14,492 nucleotides of DNA, from NCBI GenBank assembly GCA_041572575.1, contig JBFFSH010000066.1:1-14492 (forward strand), given 5' to 3'. Source of the DNA: Thermodesulfobacteriota bacterium. GTDB lineage: Bacteria; Desulfobacterota_D; UBA1144; Nemesobacterales; N074bin48. The first letter of the stretch is position 1, and each line of letters begins with the position of its first letter. Below are positions 4,564-12,371 of this stretch, piece by piece. The translations under genes were made by a program, and so were the position numbers. The notes under the pieces are model-generated. The model made no database searches. It was given only the letters and a program-made list of their open reading frames with translations, and was not told the DNA's origin.

Positions 4564-4682
4564 CGTACAGGCTCTTTCCAGAAATCTGATTTAGCAAATA
4601 AACCTCGAACGGGGGAGTTTTGCCCTTTATAGAAGCATTTTATTAACTTATACAAAGTAACCAGTAAGCCTTCACCCAAAAG

Positions 4683-4797
4683 CTTCGGGTCAAAAGGTCA
4701 ATGGATTTGGGTCTAGTGTACATAGGCTGACCGTAAGACCCTAAATGGTTTGAATACCTTTATTCCATTTCTAAACATAATGATTTAAAATAATAGG
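4683..4797 (+). repeat. Dispersed intergenic repeat, copy 1
   Basis: Shares CTTCGGGTCAAA, GGGTCTA, TGACCGTAAGACC, TGGTTT, a 30-bp identical block (4760-4789) and TAATAGG, in the same order, with 5509-5615. Confidence 0.9.
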
Positions 4798-4838
4798 TAT
4801 AAATATTTTCAAAATAACTATCCAGGGGGAAAGAAACT

Positions 4839-5473
4839 ATGGGAAAGAAAGATAGAAAGTTTCATGGGATATTATTTATTGCAGTCTCTCTCCTTTTTTT
4901 TGGAATTTATTCTCTAAGCGCTCTAGAGACGCAGAATATAGAAGGCTATCTAATCTGCATAGCACCCGACGATGAAGGAAACATAAAAATAGAGGCAGAA
5001 TTCAGCCAATGTGCCGGCAGTATAGCGCTTGTTAATCTGGAAAATGAGATATACACGATAAGCGGCGCGCAAAACTATATAGACAAACTAAACGACGCCC
5101 CCAAGAGACGAATGGGAGTGCTGATGGATCAAAAGTTACGGGCACGCTGCATGGTCACAAAAGGGCGTTACATATGATGGCAGGAGCTGCAAAGTATATC
5201 GATGAAGGCAAGACCGAAAAGGTAAAAGGGACGATCTACTGCCTGTTTCCAGATTATAAAAAATCATATATGAAATATAAGCTTACAAACAAACCCTGCT
5301 ACAGTGCCAGGCCTCACGCCCACTTTTTACATACAGATGGTAATGAGATTATTGCCATTACAGGAAGCGAAGAGCATATAAAACACATTGAAAGCGCAAC
5401 CGAAAGAAAGGATGTTTATCTAACTGGTAGTTTATCCGGAAGTAAAAACAGCAGATATATCAATCTGAAATAG
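4839..5473 (+). pseudogene. Exported hypothetical protein with two internal repeats, split by a 1-nt frameshift (or sequence error) near 5131-5134; seen as ORFs 4839-5177 and 5174-5473
   Basis: Signal/TM N-terminus; the two ORFs resemble each other (IEGYLICIAPD / VKGTIYCLFPD; ENEIYTISG / GNEIIAITG); the -1 frame from 5132 reads KVTGTLHG, matching YLTGSLSG of the second repeat, and runs into the second ORF. Confidence 0.7.
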
Positions 5474-5508
5474 TATCTCGCTGTTTTCTAAATATTATCA
5501 CTTCAGGT

Positions 5509-5615
5509 CTTCGGGTCAAAGGGTTAGGGTCTATGGTGGAACGGGTGACCGTAAGACCGTAACTGGTTTTCTTGCTCTTATTCCATTTCTAAACATAATG
5601 ATTTAAACTAATAGG
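5509..5615 (+). repeat. Dispersed intergenic repeat, copy 2
   Basis: Direct repeat of 4683-4797; identical block TTATTCCATTTCTAAACATAATGATTTAAA at 5578-5607. Confidence 0.9.
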
Positions 5616-5642
5616 ATAACTGCCGATAATTAGTTGGGATCA

Positions 5643-5702
5643 TTGACAATTTATATGAGTTATGCACAATTTGACTCTTTAAAATTGATGCTTATATAGA
5701 AT
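5643..5702 (+). promoter_or_regulatory. Candidate sigma-70 promoter region of ffh
   Basis: TTGACA (5643-5648), 16 nt, CACAAT (5665-5670); a second TTGACT (5671-5676) with TA-rich -10-like hexamers at 5693-5702. Exact pairing is ambiguous. Confidence 0.4.
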
Positions 5703-5706
5703 AAGA

Positions 5707-7038
5707 ATGTTTGAAGGAATATCCGATAAACTTAGCAATTCGTTAAAAGAGATAAGGGGTACATCCCGAATCTCCGAAGACAACATAAAAGAGACCCTGC
5801 GTCAGGTAAGGCTAAACCTCCTGGAGGCCGATGTAAACTTTCAGGTGGTAAAGGGTTTTATAGACTCTGTGAGGGAAAGGTCGCTTGGCACCGTAGTGGG
5901 TGAAAAGCTAAACCCGGGCCAGCAGTTTGTAAAGATTGTAAATGAAGAGCTGGTTAAAGTACTCGGTGAAGCGACTACAGAGGTTGACCTGCATGCCTCC
6001 CCGCCCGTAGTGTTTATGCTCGTGGGGCTTCAGGGTTCTGGTAAAACGACATCAATTGCAAAGCTTGCAAAATACTTAAGAGATACTCATAAAAGAAATC
6101 CATACCTCGTACCGGCTGATATTTACAGACCCGCTGCTATCGATCAGCTAAAGGTACTTGCAGACTCTGAAGGTTTCGGCGTGTTTGACAGCTCGGCCGA
6201 TATGAAGCCGCTTGACATCTGCAATCAGGCCCGTGATGCCGCACTTACAGGCGGATATGACGTGATGCTTATTGACACTGCGGGTAGGCTGCATATTGAT
6301 GAAGAGCTAATGAATGAGCTTGTTGAGCTTAAAAACGGGCTTAATCCTCACAATATATACTTTGTAGCAGACGCCATGACGGGGCAGGACGCCGTAAACG
6401 TAGCATCAAGCTTCAATGATACCCTGGACATAAGCGGCGTAATACTCACAAAGATGGACGGTGATGCCCGCGGGGGTGCGGCAATGTCCATTAAGGCTGT
6501 TACCGGCAAGCCCATAATGTTTTTTGGAACGGGTGAGAAATTAGACGCCCTTGAAGTCTTTCATCCAGACAGGATCGCTTCTAGAATTCTGGGCATGGGT
6601 GACGTACTTACTTTCATAGAGAAAGCACAGACTGCCATCGAAGAAGAAAAAGCTGAAAAGATGGCAAAGAAAATCCTCAAGAACAGGTTTTCTCTCGGGG
6701 ACTTCAAAGAATCCATGCTTGCTATGAGAAAGATGGGCTCACTCGAAGAAATGGCCGGGATGGTGCCTGGCATAAAAGACCTTACCAAAAATCCAAAGGC
6801 TATGGGAATGGCCGAAAAAGAGATTGATAAGACAATTGCCATTATCAATTCCATGACCAAAAAAGAGAGAAGGGACCATACTCTTATCAATGGAAGCAGA
6901 AGGAAAAGGATTGCCGCAGGAAGCGGAACCAGTGTGCCCGATGTTAACAGAATGATGAAAAATTATGCTAAAATGAGAAAAATGATGAAAAACATGGGAA
7001 ATATGGGTAAACTAGCACAGAGGTTAATGAAGTTTTAA
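5707..7038 (+). CDS. ffh: Signal recognition particle protein Ffh
   Basis: [33 protein letters not shown], Met-rich M domain with [11 protein letters not shown]. Confidence 0.98.
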
Positions 7039-7072
7039 AATAAAGCGAAAAGCACTAAGGGGGTTTTTTGAA

Positions 7073-7309
7073 TTGGTTAAAATAAGACTTATGAGAATGG
7101 GTTCAAAGAAGAGGCCGTTTTACCGTATTGTAGCGGCTGATTCCAGAGCACCTAGAGACGGTAAATTTCTTGAGATCCTTGGACATTACGATCCAAGAAC
7201 CGAGCCCAACAAAATAGAGATTAAGAAAGACAGAATAGATGATTGGGTGTCTAAGGGCGCGCAATATTCCGGCAGGGTACAAAAAATTATTTCTGGTATA
7301 CAGGGTTAG
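7073..7309 (+). CDS. rpsP: 30S ribosomal protein S16
   Basis: [32 protein letters not shown] start; conserved synteny. Confidence 0.98.
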
Positions 7310-7364
7310 TTTCTGACTAATTGTAGAAATACATACTATTGCTGTTTTACAGGAGGTTATTGTT

Positions 7365-7604
7365 ATGGAAAAGCACACAGAGCTTATTAGTTATATCGCT
7401 AAGTCACTCGTTGATAGTCCTGATCAGGTAGAGGTAAAGGAAGTAATAGGTGAACAGACAACTGTTTTGGAATTAAAGGTAGCACAGGAAGATCTGGGTA
7501 AGATCATAGGCAAACAGGGTAAAACCGCAAAGGCCATAAGAACTATCCTGGGCGCTGCTGCTGCAAAGGCTAAAAAAAGAGCAGTATTAGAAATCCTAGA
7601 ATAA
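7365..7604 (+). CDS. khpA: KH-domain RNA-binding protein KhpA (YlqC family)
   Basis: [26 protein letters not shown] (GxxG loop); lies between rpsP and rimM; AGGAGG Shine-Dalgarno. Confidence 0.95.
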
Positions 7605-7625
7605 CCTTAAGACAAAGAACCTTTC

Positions 7626-8141
7626 ATGGGGTTTATCCCTTACGGAGTTATTTCAAAGTCACACGGATTAGCCGGAGGAGTGCGACTAATCATCTATAGT
7701 GGTGACACATCAAACCTGGACTTTATAGAATCTCTATACATACAGGACGGGGATACTGAAGAATTTACCAAGTATAATATAGAGGGTCATTCTCTATCGG
7801 GTAAACATGCCGTGATAAGACTGCAGGGAGTAAACAGTATTGAGCAAGCAGATAAACTCAAGGGAACCGAAGTGTTTGTGGATGACTCTCAAATAGAGCC
7901 TGCAGGAGGAGATGAGTTTTATTACTATGAGCTTGAGGGACTGGAAGTATTTGATACTAATAATAACCTTCTTGGAAAGGTAATAAGATTAAACGACTCA
8001 GGGCCGCAGGAGCTGCTTGAAGCCCAGCTTACTAGCGGCAAAGAAGTTTTAATTCCTTTTATAGAGCCGATACTCGTAGAGGTGGATATTGATAATAAGA
8101 AGATAGTGGTCGATCCCCCGCCCGGGCTTCTTGATCTATAA
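7626..8141 (+). CDS. rimM: 16S rRNA processing protein RimM
   Basis: HGLAGGV, EFYYYELEGLEV, LIPF, PPPGLL; synteny. Confidence 0.95.
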   Translation: MGFIPYGVISKSHGLAGGVRLIIYSGDTSNLDFIESLYIQDGDTEEFTKYNIEGHSLSGKHAVIRLQGVNSIEQADKLKGTEVFVDDSQIEPAGGDEFYYYELEGLEVFDTNNNLLGKVIRLNDSGPQELLEAQLTSGKEVLIPFIEPILVEVDIDNKKIVVDPPPGLLDL

Positions 8142-8228
8142 AAAATACATTATTAATATAACCCCCCTCTGGACTTTTGATCTTTAATACTAATAATTAC
8201 CAAAACTAATTAGAGCGTCTTATAAAAA

Positions 8229-9527
8229 ATGCAGTTTAATATACTTACAATATTCCCGGAGATGTTTGAAGGCGTGTTATCCTCAGGCGTTATTGGGAGA
8301 GCTGCAGACTCGGGCTTGCTGAATATAAACACCTATAATATAAGAGACTACACCACAGATAAACACAGGATGGTGGATGACAGACCCTACGGCGGAGGCT
8401 CAGGGATGGTAATGAAGCCGGAGCCCATTGCAGCAGCTCTAAAAGACGTAACTAACTCGGACGATAAAAGCAAGGTAATCCTGCTAAGCCCCGGGGGTAA
8501 GACATTTAACAATGAAATAGCAAAGGATTTAGCCGACTATGAAACCCTCATATTCATATGCGGCAGGTACGAAGGGGTGGATGAAAGGATAAAGGAAAAA
8601 TACGTTGACATGGAGCTATCGATTGGCGACTATGTGCTTTCGGGCGGGGAGTATGCCGCCATGGCCATCATAGATTCGGTAGCAAGATACATCCCAGGAG
8701 TGCTTGGGAATGATCAGTCCACAGTGGATGAATCATTCAGCTCAGGCCTGCTTGAGTATCCACAGTACACAAGGCCAGAGGAATTTGAGGGTTCAAAAGT
8801 GCCTGAGGTACTGCTATCAGGGGATCATGGCAAGATTGGTGACTGGAGAAGACAAAAGAGTATAGAGAAGACTTTTGCCAGCAGACCAGACCTTATCGAC
8901 CGAAATATACTGGAATTAGACGATATAAATACTGTAGATAACCTTAAGAGAAAACTTGAAAAAAACAGTAATTTGTATATTGCATTAGTGCATTATCCCG
9001 TATACAATAAACGGCTTGATGTTGTAAAAACATCCTTTACCAACATCGATGTTCTTGATATGGCAAGAGCGGGAAGAACTTACGGGGTTAAAGGGTTTTA
9101 CCTTGTTCATCCTGTAGCAGAGCAGAGGGATCTGATCCGCACTGTGATGGAACACTGGACAAAGGGTAAGGGATATGAATACAACACGAGCAGAAAGGAA
9201 TCGCTGGAATATACGTATATTTCGGAGAGCCTTTCTGATACAATAGAAACGATTGAAAAATTAGAAGGCTCAAAGCCAAAAATTATAGTAACAGACGCAA
9301 GGTATAGTGATAAGATGACAGGGTATTTGGAAATGAGAGAGACAATCGAAAGTGATTCAAATCCGTTCCTTTTGCTTTTTGGAACAGGTTATGGACTCAT
9401 AAGAGAAATCATTGAGGGTTCTGATTATAATCTAAAGCCTGTTGTTGGAAGTGAAATATTTAATCATCTGTCAGTAAGGAGTGCCGCAAGCATAATCCTT
9501 GACAGACTTTGCAGTGTGAAAATATAA
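8229..9527 (+). CDS. trmD: tRNA (guanine37-N1) methyltransferase TrmD with a C-terminal SPOUT-type (DUF2168-like) domain
   Basis: VDDRPYGGGSGMV, CGRYEGVDER, SIGDYVLSGGE, EYPQYTRP; extra ~190 aa with LYIALVHYPV, LLFGTGYGL and NHLSVRSAASIILDRL. Confidence 0.96.
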   Translation: MQFNILTIFPEMFEGVLSSGVIGRAADSGLLNINTYNIRDYTTDKHRMVDDRPYGGGSGMVMKPEPIAAALKDVTNSDDKSKVILLSPGGKTFNNEIAKDLADYETLIFICGRYEGVDERIKEKYVDMELSIGDYVLSGGEYAAMAIIDSVARYIPGVLGNDQSTVDESFSSGLLEYPQYTRPEEFEGSKVPEVLLSGDHGKIGDWRRQKSIEKTFASRPDLIDRNILELDDINTVDNLKRKLEKNSNLYIALVHYPVYNKRLDVVKTSFTNIDVLDMARAGRTYGVKGFYLVHPVAEQRDLIRTVMEHWTKGKGYEYNTSRKESLEYTYISESLSDTIETIEKLEGSKPKIIVTDARYSDKMTGYLEMRETIESDSNPFLLLFGTGYGLIREIIEGSDYNLKPVVGSEIFNHLSVRSAASIILDRLCSVKI

Positions 9528-9542
9528 AAAGGAGTAAGTAAA

Positions 9543-9914
9543 GTGGGTATTGTAAGCGAAATTGAGAAGCCATTATTGAGAGAAAACGCCGAGGAGTTCA
9601 GACCCGGCGATACAGTTGCCGTACATTATAAGATTAAAGAGGGTGACAGAGAACGTATTCAGATTTTTGAAGGCGTTGTAATTGCCAAGAAAAATGGCGG
9701 CCTTAGAGAAACATTTACCGTAAGAAAAATTTCATACGGCATAGGAATCGAAAGGATCATCCCGCTTCATTCCCCGCTTATTGAAAAAATAGAGGTTAAG
9801 CGTCTTGGTAAAGTAAGAAGAGCAAAGCTCTACTACCTAAGAGGACTATCCAGAAAAGCCGCCAGAATTCCGGAGAGAACAAAACCGGATATGGTTAAGA
9901 AAAAGAAGGGGTAG
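9543..9914 (+). CDS. rplS: 50S ribosomal protein L19
   Basis: [33 protein letters not shown] start after AAGGAG. Confidence 0.98.
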
Positions 9915-9934
9915 GATTACCCTCTCTTTCTTTT
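9902..9934. terminator. Hairpin overlapping the rplS stop, between convergent genes
   Basis: AAAGAAGGGGTA-ggat-TACCCTCTCTTT (one mismatch, one G-U) followed by CTTTT. Confidence 0.5.
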
Positions 9935-10166
9935 ATATACCAAACAACTTTCTTGCAGTAGGAGAATCAATTAATAAGTTTTCCCCCAGAATTTTAGCAA
10001 ATTCTTGGAAAGCTTTTTTATCTTCATCAAAAGATTTAGCCGGTAATTCATAACAAGTAAAAAGTTGTTTTTTCTTTGATTTTTTATAGATTCTAAAAAC
10101 ATAGATCTTTTTTTCGTCTTCTTTTATTTCAACCATATGATCATATTCAGGTAGTTTCTTTGTCAT
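9933..10166 (-). CDS. Hypothetical protein, 77 aa, Lys-rich
   Basis: Uninterrupted ORF in very AT-rich DNA with protein-like composition; no family recognised. Confidence 0.7.
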   Translation of the reverse strand: MTKKLPEYDHMVEIKEDEKKIYVFRIYKKSKKKQLFTCYELPAKSFDEDKKAFQEFAKILGENLLIDSPTARKLFGI

Positions 10167-10198
10167 TATTATTATTATAATCTTATTTTTTTACATCT

Positions 10199-10247
10199 GG
10201 TCATATATTTTTTGTTAGACCCTAAACCTTAGACCTTTTGACCTGAA
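10199..10247 (-). repeat. Dispersed intergenic repeat, copy 3 (partial, inverted)
   Basis: Reverse complement of 10216-10247 (TTCAGGTCAAAAGGTCTAAGGTTTAGGGTCTA) matches 4684-4715 at 27/32 positions without gaps, followed by 12 nt and TGACC. Confidence 0.85.
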
Positions 10248-10302
10248 CTTATAAAAAAGCAGCATCAGATTAGTAATATAGTATACACATTATTTCCAAT
10301 AT

Positions 10303-10331
10303 TTGACTCGCTATGTTCTATGGCATATCAT
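10303..10331 (+). promoter_or_regulatory. Sigma-70-type promoter of nrfHA
   Basis: TTGACT (10303-10308), 17 nt, TATCAT (10326-10331). Confidence 0.65.
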
Positions 10332-10407
10332 CCAGAGTGTATCGTGGTTGATTGAATTAAAAGCCTTATCAGCGTTATTAAAAAAGCGTGTTTGTGTAGA
10401 TCCTGTT

Positions 10408-10911
10408 ATGACTATGAAGAAAAGAGCAATAATCCTATCTATTGCTGTAGGGGCTTTGATCGGTCTTGGGAGTTATACTATGTATTACGGAGAAGGCCTT
10501 TCATATCTGAGTAAAGACCCAAGGTCTTGTGTTAACTGCCACATTATGCAGTCTCAGTATGATTCATGGCAAAAGGCAAGCCACCACACAGCGGCCACTT
10601 GCGTCCAGTGCCACCTGCCTCATGATTTTGTTAACAAATACATATCCAAAGCTGTAAACGGATATCATCATTCCAAAGCGTTTACACTTCAAAATTTCCA
10701 CGAACCTATAATGATAACCGAGAAAAATAGCATTATATTGCAGAACAACTGTATTGATTGTCATAGGGGTATAACAGAAAATCTTACCCACGGCAGTACT
10801 GCAACCCCCGATGCAATCAAATGTGTTAAGTGCCATAAAGCGGTCGGACACGGAGAAACTACGGGACTGGGCGGTCCCATAAAATCACATGAGACAGGAG
10901 GTATTAAATAA
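10408..10911 (+). CDS. nrfH: Cytochrome c nitrite reductase small subunit NrfH (NapC/NirT family tetraheme)
   Basis: Four CXXCH (CVNCH, CVQCH, CIDCH, CVKCH), SYLSKDP..C..CH.M motif and N-terminal TM anchor; start placed at ATG 10408 (or 10414) rather than TTG 10303. Confidence 0.93.
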
Positions 10912-12371
10912 TGAGCGGAGCATCAAAATTTGGATCTAAAACAGGAATCGCTGTTATAGTTGTGACAGTAGCGCTTTTGACTGCGGGTATTACAGCTTTA
11001 CTTCTGAACATTTTTGAGCGGAAAGTCGAAGCTAGAAATCCTTTTGTCCGGCTTGTTGAAGTTACTGAAACTGATACTGACCCTGAAAAGTGGAAAGTCA
11101 ACTGGCCCAAGCAGTACGATTCATATAAAAAGACCAGCGTGGCTACACGCACGCGTTTTGGCGGCCATGGAGGAAGCGAAGCGCTTCCCGAACAAAAAAT
11201 AGAAAGGGACCCGTGGCTAAAGCGAATGTTCAAGGGTTACGCTTTTTCCATCGACTACAGAGACCGCCGCGGACATGCTTATATGCTAGAAGATCAGGAG
11301 CAAACAGAACGCCAAACAAAACCCCAGTCCGGATCATGTCTGCATTGCCATGCTTCAATCATGCCGCTCTACGAAAAGCTTGGAAACGGCGATGTAATAA
11401 AAGGATTCGAGCAGACGTATAAATATTCGTATAAAGATCTCAATAAACAATTACATGACATGGGTCATGGCAACCCCGTATCCTGTGTTGATTGCCATTC
11501 ACCAAAAACCATGGAACTGCGTGTTACAAGACCGGGCTTTATTCAGGGTATACAGGCATTAGCTGAGTCGGATGCTCCCACGCCACACCTGCCTTCTATT
11601 GAGCAGTGGAGAAAGGGTTCAAAGAGTGAACCATACAATCCCAACACAGATGCGAGCAGGTCGGAAATGCGCTCATATGTATGCGGGCAGTGCCATGTGG
11701 AATATTACTGCGGCGCAGATATGAAACTTACATTCCCCTGGGGTAACGGACTTAAGGTGGAAGATCAGGAGAAATTCTGGGACGAAACGACTCTAAGTGA
11801 CGGAAGGAAATTCTTTGATTACACACATAAGGAAACGGGAGCAAAGATATTAAAGGCGCAGCACCCCGAGTTTGAGTTATGGAGCCAGGGAATTCATGCG
11901 CGAAGTGGAGTTGGGTGTGCCGATTGTCACATGCCCTATATGCGTGATGGCGCCACCAAAGTATCGGATCATTGGGTGAGAAGCCCTCTTCTAAATATTA
12001 ACCGAGCCTGCCAGACCTGTCATAGATTTTCCGAGCAGGAAATAAAAGAACGAGTAGACGGAATACAACAACGTAATTTTGATTTGCTGCAACGAGCCGG
12101 AGCATCGCTTATGGAACTGCTCGATGCTATCAACACAGCTAGGGCCGAAGGCGCAACAGATGTGCAGTTAAAAAAGGCGCTTGATATGCAGCGCAAAGCA
12201 CAGTGGCGGCTGGACTTCATAGCTGCCGAAAATTCAATGGGATTTCATGCTCCTCAAGAGGCTGCAAGAATTCTCGGTGAATCAATAGATTATGCTTGGC
12301 AGGGAACAGTGGCGGCAACGAAATGGAACAAAGTGAACGTGGCAAGCAATGTAGCAGATGAATCTAAATAG
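10911..12371 (+). CDS. nrfA: Ammonia-forming pentaheme cytochrome c nitrite reductase NrfA, CXXCH heme-1 variant
   Basis: Five heme motifs (CLHCH, CVDCH, CGQCH, CADCH, CQTCH), [36 protein letters not shown]; coupled to nrfH by TAATG overlap with AGGAGGT Shine-Dalgarno. Confidence 0.95.

Follow-up and report, generated by a model that had tools for sequence, protein, structure and literature searches.

What are the three short, scattered copies of a repeat that lie around the ffh-rplS operon in the DNA considered here, and how did they come to be where they are? The DNA, called the window below, is a stretch of 14,492 nucleotides (nt) that forms contig C66 of a Candidatus Dadabacteria genome, the host (G000; 2.6 Mb, 96% complete assembly), which was assigned to that group by the names of homologues. 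It was compared with a phylum set of 120 genomes that includes the host and its congener G001. Our answer, to which we would give a probability of about 0.6, is that the copies are solo repeats, likely bound by a replication protein (Rep), that likely derive from the origins of satellite elements and now bracket accessory genes as likely mobile modules. More generally, origin-like repeats have spread as solo copies delimiting accessory DNA in at least two Dadabacteria lineages.

The pattern GGGTCTA-N12-TGACC occurs in the window at 4709-4732 (+), 5527-5550 (+) and 10199-10222 (-). These three matches compare with a mean of 0.01 in shuffled sequence, and none of 200 shuffles reached three. The three-copy pattern described in an earlier, sequence-only reading is therefore borne out, as are its spacers, its left arms and the intergenic placement of all three copies. 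The GGTC-like units of the left arm are present as well, but they do not form a one-sided array; the unit is an imperfect inverted repeat. The copies are as follows.

4681..4747, + strand: copy 1, a GGTCA-type iteron inverted repeat (pattern scan; second model E 2e-5, copy in its training set); pentamers 4688-4692 and 4696-4700, central half-site GGGTCTA 4709-4715, opposed by inverted pentamers 4728-4732 and 4736-4740
5499..5565, + strand: copy 2, a GGTCA-type inverted repeat (pattern scan; second model E 1.3e-7, copy in its training set); pentamers 5506-5510 and 5514-5518, GGGTCTA 5527-5533, opposed by inverted pentamers 5546-5550 and 5554-5558
10184..10250, - strand: copy 3, which runs opposite to copies 1 and 2 and has lost its outer right pentamer (pattern scan; second model E 9e-5, copy in its training set)

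The three copies are degenerate members of a family of inverted repeats of about 60 nt. A first profile made from eight seeds led to 10 GGTCA-type host loci, and a covariance model built from these 10 alone pulled in eight host loci with other arm sequences and, outside the host, three loci in G001, two in G032 and one in G028. A second model was built from a 44-copy alignment; 21 of the 23 host loci, including window copies 1-3, are in its training set. In the common plan of the 44 copies, two NNNCA pentamers at a spacing of 8 nt come first, then a central TA with CCC behind it, and last the inverted pentamers; the centre is a GGG-TA-CCC-like dyad. The second model places 23 loci in the host, on 10 contigs and in 10 clusters (10 GGTCA-type, six ACCCA-like and seven others), and this is what the many genome-wide copies at which the window had hinted amount to. 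The exact pattern with the 12-nt spacer is found at five places in the 2.6-Mb host genome, all of them family members, and at one more in G001. These 12 nt separate the central half-site from the inner inverted pentamer, and their fixed number is a property of one subtype (five of the 23 host loci), the other GGTCA copies having 13 nt. Likewise, the position 5' of a co-oriented gene, seen by the sequence-only reading at all three copies, is not a rule of the family, whose members have neighbours in all orientations.

The best-kept copies, on contigs C22 and C98, are near-perfect inverted repeats of about 60 nt with folding z values of -6.8 and -6.4. The arms covary: the 44 copies show 177 double changes versus 78 +/- 7 in shuffles, a count that relatedness inflates, and 78% of arm cells are paired versus at most 46% when the arms are slid. 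The inner five arm pairs are paired in 42-44 of the 44 copies, with few G-U pairs. Like REP elements, the copies are dispersed, intergenic, often clustered palindromes. Some clusters have been duplicated as blocks (dimers on C21/C98 and triplets on C15/C58), and tandem clusters mix different pentamer families.

The second model matches 15 of the 120 phylum genomes, including all 10 of genus g13, and five of the 15 supplied no training sequence. Nine genomes have both the repeat and the rep gene described below, six have only the repeat and four only rep; the genomes that bear them are related, hence these counts are not independent. Exact patterns were too strict for such a search, with no match in the 119 other phylum genomes, where the models did find copies. 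A metagenome scan gave three matches, all inside coding sequence and judged to be chance, and a generic motif-plus-hairpin scan did not rise above its controls (382 of 6487 sites, against 288-314 of 5055-6664 in the controls). A scan of a genome collection turned up 34 intergenic palindromes (L030-L063) in gut Clostridia, mostly Lachnospiraceae; they have GGTCA outer arms of period 8 as in the host family, but a TGCTTGCA-type centre and conserved outer flanks. No description of the repeat family came up in searches of an open-access library.

A first clue to the nature of the repeat is the gene to which it is attached. In G028 the repeat forms part, in frame, of the final codons of a gene whose Pfam domains are DnaB and AAA_25, and this rep-terminal repeat and its sister families were found by the model trained only on the 10 GGTCA copies. 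Homologues of this rep gene are present in 11 of the 120 genomes, or 13 with a C-terminal query. Fifteen rep loci were examined (17 matches minus one truncated gene and the host dnaB), and in 13 of them the repeat is found at the end of the winged helix or no more than about 100 nt from it, so that opposed iterons around an A/T centre lie directly downstream of rep, an arrangement that the solo window copies do not have. The exceptions are C77, which has no repeat, and G084, which has at most a partial one. The host itself has two full homologues (C31 and C77) and one C-terminal relic (C3); the C31 gene ends inside a repeat, the C3 relic abuts one, and the C77 gene is intact without a repeat of its own. 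The sequence-only reading had suggested looking for a linked recombinase or HUH gene, and the linked protein is instead helicase- and initiator-like. A PDB profile search with Rep found DnaB N-termini, RSF1010 RepA (E 1e-6) and, weakly, a winged helix (E 0.005). In the predicted model, which has a pLDDT of 84.7, the C-terminus consists of three helices and a two-strand wing, and Foldseek ranked DnaB helicases first. By sequence and predicted fold, Rep is likely an initiator-helicase with a C-terminal winged helix, of a helicase class that differs from that of the Staphylococcus aureus pathogenicity islands (SaPIs). Because the layout of rep and repeat matches that of the SaPI rep and its iterons, the repeat would most simply be a miniature replication origin, and this is likely.

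A full satellite is present in G093, where an island at tRNA-Leu holds rep and a short repeat together with integrase, RHH, HTH_17 and sigma70-r4 genes. In genus g13 no integrase was found near rep in the regions read, and in G077 the rep gene on C101 is flanked by identical direct repeat copies. Searches of IMG/VR and of phage and plasmid collections with Rep returned only distant helicases and no close relative. Both host rep genes have the end of an insertion sequence directly upstream. Two insertion sequence families break the host assembly at contig ends (C77, C22, C98, C26, C54, C36, C25, C8; C31, C75, C14).

A second clue comes from the winged helix. The residue before a conserved 'RA' of its third helix tracks the first base of the pentamer in all 14 loci for which DNA is available, with the following matches.

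Lysine (K): pentamer GGTCA, pair K-G
Threonine (T): pentamer A..CA, pair T-A
Phenylalanine (F): pentamer TGACA, pair F-T
Glutamate (E): pentamer CGCCA or CGACA, pair E-C
Asparagine (N): pentamer GGACA, pair N-G

A permutation test gives p 1e-5 for this match, ignoring kinship, and five of five independent pairs agree on a tree made without the winged helix (the rep trees were made with quick and FastTree methods). Three of the pairs, E-C, K-G and F-T, are in line with contacts that are common between proteins and DNA. Among homologues known only as proteins, 10 of 14 lysine-type tails are compatible with repeated GGTCA and four of four threonine-type tails fit AGTCA only; the background of such back-translation is 48% for any pentamer, and it is informative only for the K and T rows. 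Since one winged-helix residue tracks the first base of the pentamer, Rep likely binds the repeat, and we regard it as highly probable that the repeats are origin-type binding sites for a Rep-type protein. In this respect the sequence-only reading, which proposed a protein-recognised site of fixed spacing, is supported. The C77 protein carries K and is therefore the predicted reader of the GGTCA sites in the window. In G079, two contig starts (C10 and C2; L174, L175) carry broken rep genes whose ATPase parts group as sisters, with different helix residues, different pentamers and a duplicated upstream region of about 900 nt; this pair suggests that winged helix and repeat may be swapped as one module.

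Away from rep, the repeats bracket other genes. No rep remnant is found at 21 of the 23 host loci. The 10 integrase matches of the host all fall on contigs other than the 10 that bear repeats, and none of these 10 has a tRNA gene, one having a tmRNA 14 kb from the repeat. Host repeat pairs bracket AT-rich genes (27% GC on C22 and 32% on C48, versus 37% for the genome), and the gene on C48 has a Schlafen AlbA_2 domain. In g13, the core sites beside alr, pntB and mqnC (names read from the sequences) hold repeat arrays whose cargo differs between genomes, and repeats enclose a HicAB-like pair in both G015 and G077, at core sites that differ between the two. The site 3' of cysS is repeat-free in four of six related genomes and filled with different modules in the other two: in G081 a GIY-YIG-like gene sits between two near-identical copies in direct orientation, and in G015 an AT-rich gene sits between two inverted copies that belong to another family. 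The cargo is bracketed by two copies of one family, sometimes identical ones. The earlier idea that the window copies are an empty form, to be filled by a gene between the GGTC and GACC arms, is not supported, as the cargo sits between two whole repeats instead.

The features of the window that bear on this are listed here.

4760..4797, + strand: 38-nt tail after copy 1, 97% identity to 5578-5615
4839..5473, + strand: cargo gene X, a likely secreted protein, as open reading frames of 112 and 99 amino acids overlapping at 5174-5177; no Pfam match
5578..5615, + strand: second 38-nt tail, after copy 2, 97% identity to 4760-4797
5643..5670, + strand: sigma70-like promoter consensus upstream of ffh and outside the repeat, 10 of 12 matches; the count of such sites in the region equals chance
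5707..9914, + strand: ffh-rpsP-KH-rimM-trmD-rplS block, inverted relative to pgsA when compared with G001 and G004
9933..10166, - strand: cargo gene Y, 77 amino acids, 27% GC

Only ffh was scanned; the other genes of the block are what we take to be rpsP, KH, rimM, trmD and rplS from their sequences. In G001 and G004, the ffh operon and pgsA are convergent, with the rplS end facing pgsA, and in the host the operon is reversed. G001 has one GGGTCTA-N12-TGACC copy between pgsA and rplS, and G004 has none there; all three G001 copies are at sites where the host also has repeats. Copy 3 retains the position of the G001 copy beside the 3' end of rplS, and copy 1 is on the pgsA side. The left arm of the G001 copy is closest to copy 1 (22 of 25, versus 16 and 20 for the others), and its right flank does not discriminate (7, 8 and 7 of 15). 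As copies 1/2 and copy 3 are mutually inverted and lie within the two breakpoint intervals, the inversion fits recombination between them, with the crossover unplaced. The synteny break that the sequence-only reading had proposed to look for at the copies is there, with copies at both ends of the inversion, and their position at junctions of core and accessory DNA is likewise supported.

Copies 1 and 2, each with its 38-nt tail, bracket gene X as direct repeats. The tail has no other strong match in the host genome and is private to these two copies. The gene noted at 4839 consists of two overlapping frames rather than one. Relatives of gene X, with homologues in 21 other genomes but not in G001, are mostly single open reading frames of about 200-250 amino acids; the family has two similar halves that contain Cys. 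The read data are contigs of four runs from four studies, each possibly the source of this DNA, and no indel is listed in them at the split in gene X. They show the window arranged as in the assembly, and two of the runs hold a low-depth copy with other flanks. Gene Y has 47% identity to its sole homologue in the phylum, a small gene directly behind an RHS-type gene (G080; L247:1500-1710), and for this reason gene Y is likely an orphan immunity gene. None of 19 loci with gene X homologues has a repeat nearby, nor does the locus of the gene Y homologue, and so the window's own cargo is at most a candidate for mobility. Beyond these genes, trmD (8229-9527) encodes 432 amino acids in the host and has the same length in G001 and G004, which is about twice the usual length, and its C-terminal extension resembles a second RNA methyltransferase domain. 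A pair of genes resembling the nrfH/nrfA cytochrome c nitrite reductase (10303-12371) adjoins copy 3.

How might such a system work? The winged helix would bind paired pentamers on double-stranded DNA, the AAA_25 ring would load and open the central TA dyad, and the DnaB-type N-terminus would recruit the host primase. The most speculative steps are that Rep acting in trans (here from the lysine-type C77 gene, whose own repeat would have been lost) fires at chromosomal copies, that firing releases the DNA bounded by two repeats, and that the released piece re-inserts by host recombination, which would give new copies, cargo exchange and inversions without a dedicated recombinase. That Rep actively moves the modules is a tentative suggestion. 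Somewhat more doubtful still is the whole picture of a recombinase-free mobile system, in which a satellite helicase and its miniature origin would have turned into a REP-like family, pairs of origins would delimit cassettes copied out in trans, a one-residue code would set orthogonal families, and the genome would have been reshaped through cargo exchange and inversion of the ffh-rplS operon.

Several observations weigh against mobile, Rep-bound modules. There is no sign of current activity in the reads at the window copies or at the C31 rep contig: among the rows listed for the contigs of the four runs, no joints or loose ends point to excision at the window copies, and the C31 contig is at chromosomal depth in run X12 (18.1 versus 18.3-20). 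Rep has no recognisable nuclease or recombinase domain, which leaves the origin of new copies unexplained, and at the cysS site no target duplication is visible, the intergenic spacer being wholly different or replaced. Seven of the 23 host loci have pentamers or states without a matching intact resident Rep, six of the 15 repeat-bearing genomes are without a rep match, and four of the 13 rep-bearing genomes are without a model match. As for the recognition code, the independent-pair test, at p 0.0625, is unable to reach significance, and four of the 14 protein-only lysine-type tails are not compatible with repeated GGTCA. In addition, residue and pentamer are about 70 nt apart and would travel together in recombination, so that their match might arise without co-evolution. 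Finally, a Y1 transposase gene is about 1.1 kb from one weak model match in G015 (G015:C8:99575-101002).

The quiet reads would suit an explanation in which nothing moves the repeats now, each being the origin left by a separate decayed satellite and the cargo being satellite accessory genes. The full satellite in G093, the decaying rep beside its own repeat on C3, the tandem clusters of mixed pentamer families and the three G001 copies at sites that also bear repeats in the host all agree with it. However, passive decay predicts remnants of rep and integrase, and these are mostly missing: the 21 host loci are free of rep although the repeat is fused to the 3' end of that gene, the repeat-rich g13 genomes have only 0-2 winged-helix matches each, and the repeat-bearing host contigs have neither integrase match nor tRNA gene. 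Cargo between two same-family, sometimes identical copies is also difficult to explain in this way, and we consider passive relics unlikely. It is quite improbable that the repeat is a domesticated operator or nucleoid site, with the lysine-type C77 Rep as a regulator beside ffh and accessory genes. The C77 gene is intact yet has no repeat of its own, the window copies keep their pentamers and spacing and lose their stem pairing, and about 80 nt separate the end of copy 2 from the ffh promoter consensus downstream of it; but other copies are found between convergent genes or, in tandem clusters, well away from gene starts, several pentamer families coexist, and sites are gained and lost together with cargo. 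A multi-site operator, as the sequence-only reading had also proposed, is thus a possible role that explains little.

The dispersed, clustered pattern also resembles that of REP/BIME elements, so that the repeat might be moved by an HUH transposase (RAYT/TIRYT), as a REP- or TIR-type repeat, or represent the arms of a four-helix-bundle (IVP) gene, with rep a passenger. The terminal repeats of a TIRYT-like Y1 gene of the host contain GGGTCA too, and the IVP genes of relatives have repeated arms of 7-8 nt. But the repeats of the Y1 gene are a separate family with no model match, the listing gives no Y1 match for eight of the 15 repeat-bearing genomes (seven of the 10 in g13, plus G028), most of the 67 Y1-positive genomes are without the repeat, the constant GTAG/CGTC tag is missing, and the host has no IVP gene, all of which makes this explanation very improbable. 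The Y1 gene in question (312 amino acids; G000:C6:51352-52723, L067) has GGGTCAGG-type terminal repeats, which recur at C6:4793-6136, C26:16230 and L141 ~5270-5400, with a few solo copies elsewhere and one pair beside the G001 repeat. The host GIY-YIG and Y1 genes were tried as the source of the repeat and rejected, since they carry other repeats, and neither IVP (PF05635/TIGR02436) nor PF13366 genes are found in the host genome. The link to four-helix-bundle/23S-IVS-type genes made earlier is accordingly not supported, the family model matching none of 11 such loci of relatives. Such genes occur in 19 of the 120 Dadabacteria genomes (L090-L118), and most have repeated arms of 7-8 nt upstream and the reverse complement downstream. 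A structured RNA, be it a terminator, riboswitch or small RNA, is scarcely credible. The best copies fold strongly and their arms covary, as described above, but pairing is almost purely Watson-Crick, the repeat overlaps a reading frame in the rep loci, and the window copies, with z values of -1.1, -1.1 and +0.2, do not exceed shuffled sequence in folding. An Rfam scan gave three weak matches, none at the window copies, and no terminator was called at copies 1-2.

What would this mean? A Rep-bound repeat of satellite descent suggests that palindromes dispersed in bacterial genomes can stem not only from transposases but also from satellite replication origins. If it is true that Rep moves the modules, genes would be captured and spread on a helicase and host recombination. 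Should the copies prove passive, the family still provides a candidate origin of about 60 bp for a DnaB-N/AAA_25/winged-helix initiator that is so far uncharacterised, together with a one-residue recognition code open to direct test (K-G, E-C, F-T, T-A).

Parts of this arrangement have parallels in known systems. The four-helix-bundle genes (PF05635/TIGR02436) also have short units of 7-8 nt that are direct on one side and inverted on the other, but their arms are loose and flank one gene, whereas the present repeat unites both arms in a single 60-nt unit whose centre is fixed. In integron cassette arrays, accessory genes are separated by imperfect attC palindromes of about 60 nt at fixed core sites; the cargo includes toxin-antitoxin and defence-like genes, and attC ends are RYYYAAC...GTTRRRY. 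The present modules resemble them in having accessory genes, toxin-antitoxin and defence-like ones included, in arrays between imperfect palindromes of about 60 nt at fixed core sites. However, copies here are in both orientations, empty sites are without a repeat, R''/R' boxes of that consensus are not seen in the 44-copy alignment, and there is no tyrosine recombinase on the repeat-bearing host contigs that could be an integron integrase.

The REP/REPIN/BIME-RAYT and TIR-TIRYT systems are marked, as far as the cited accounts go, by a GTAG/CGTC tag or a GGGGWSAS motif at the hairpin foot (10.1101/279083, PMC3733652), and neither was found in the alignment of 44 copies. The likeness lies in dispersed intergenic palindromes, lineage-specific families, dimers and trimers in tandem, a cognate gene of low copy number next to its own repeat, and persistence where the gene is missing. 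The cognate gene here, in contrast, is a helicase/initiator-like ATPase and not an HUH Y1 transposase, the repeat is fused to its last codons, and what defines a family is a pentamer that follows a single residue of the protein. No cognate Y1 gene flanked by the repeat was found, the host Y1 gene having other repeats.

The closest comparison is with the SaPIs and related phage-inducible chromosomal islands (PICIs). In the parts of the published work drawn on here, the C-terminal winged helix of SaPI Rep binds iterons of five or six nucleotides that lie immediately behind rep, an AT region being flanked on either side by two or more of them in opposed directions (PMC9371898), and in SaPI-type Rep the wing rather than the helix reads bases (10.64898/2026.10.17.759575). 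Measured against those parts, the shared features are a helicase with a C-terminal winged helix, an origin-like repeat directly at the 3' end of its gene, pentamer iterons that are opposed, two on each side of an A/T centre, and an integrase-bearing island in G093. The same parts mark the differences: the helicase here is DnaB-N plus AAA_25 (RecA fold, RSF1010 RepA-like) and not SF3/MCM; the site is about 60 nt, versus about 300 bp with 6-12 iterons in SaPI; and the centre is a short TA dyad in G/C flanks with no primase gene beside it. Integrase, attachment site and regulators are together in one island in G093, but not near the g13 rep genes or the host repeats. In two lineages rep occurs without integrase and many solo copies surround cargo, a difference from the SaPIs and PICIs, and these modules likely form a new kind of gene-carrying mobile unit.

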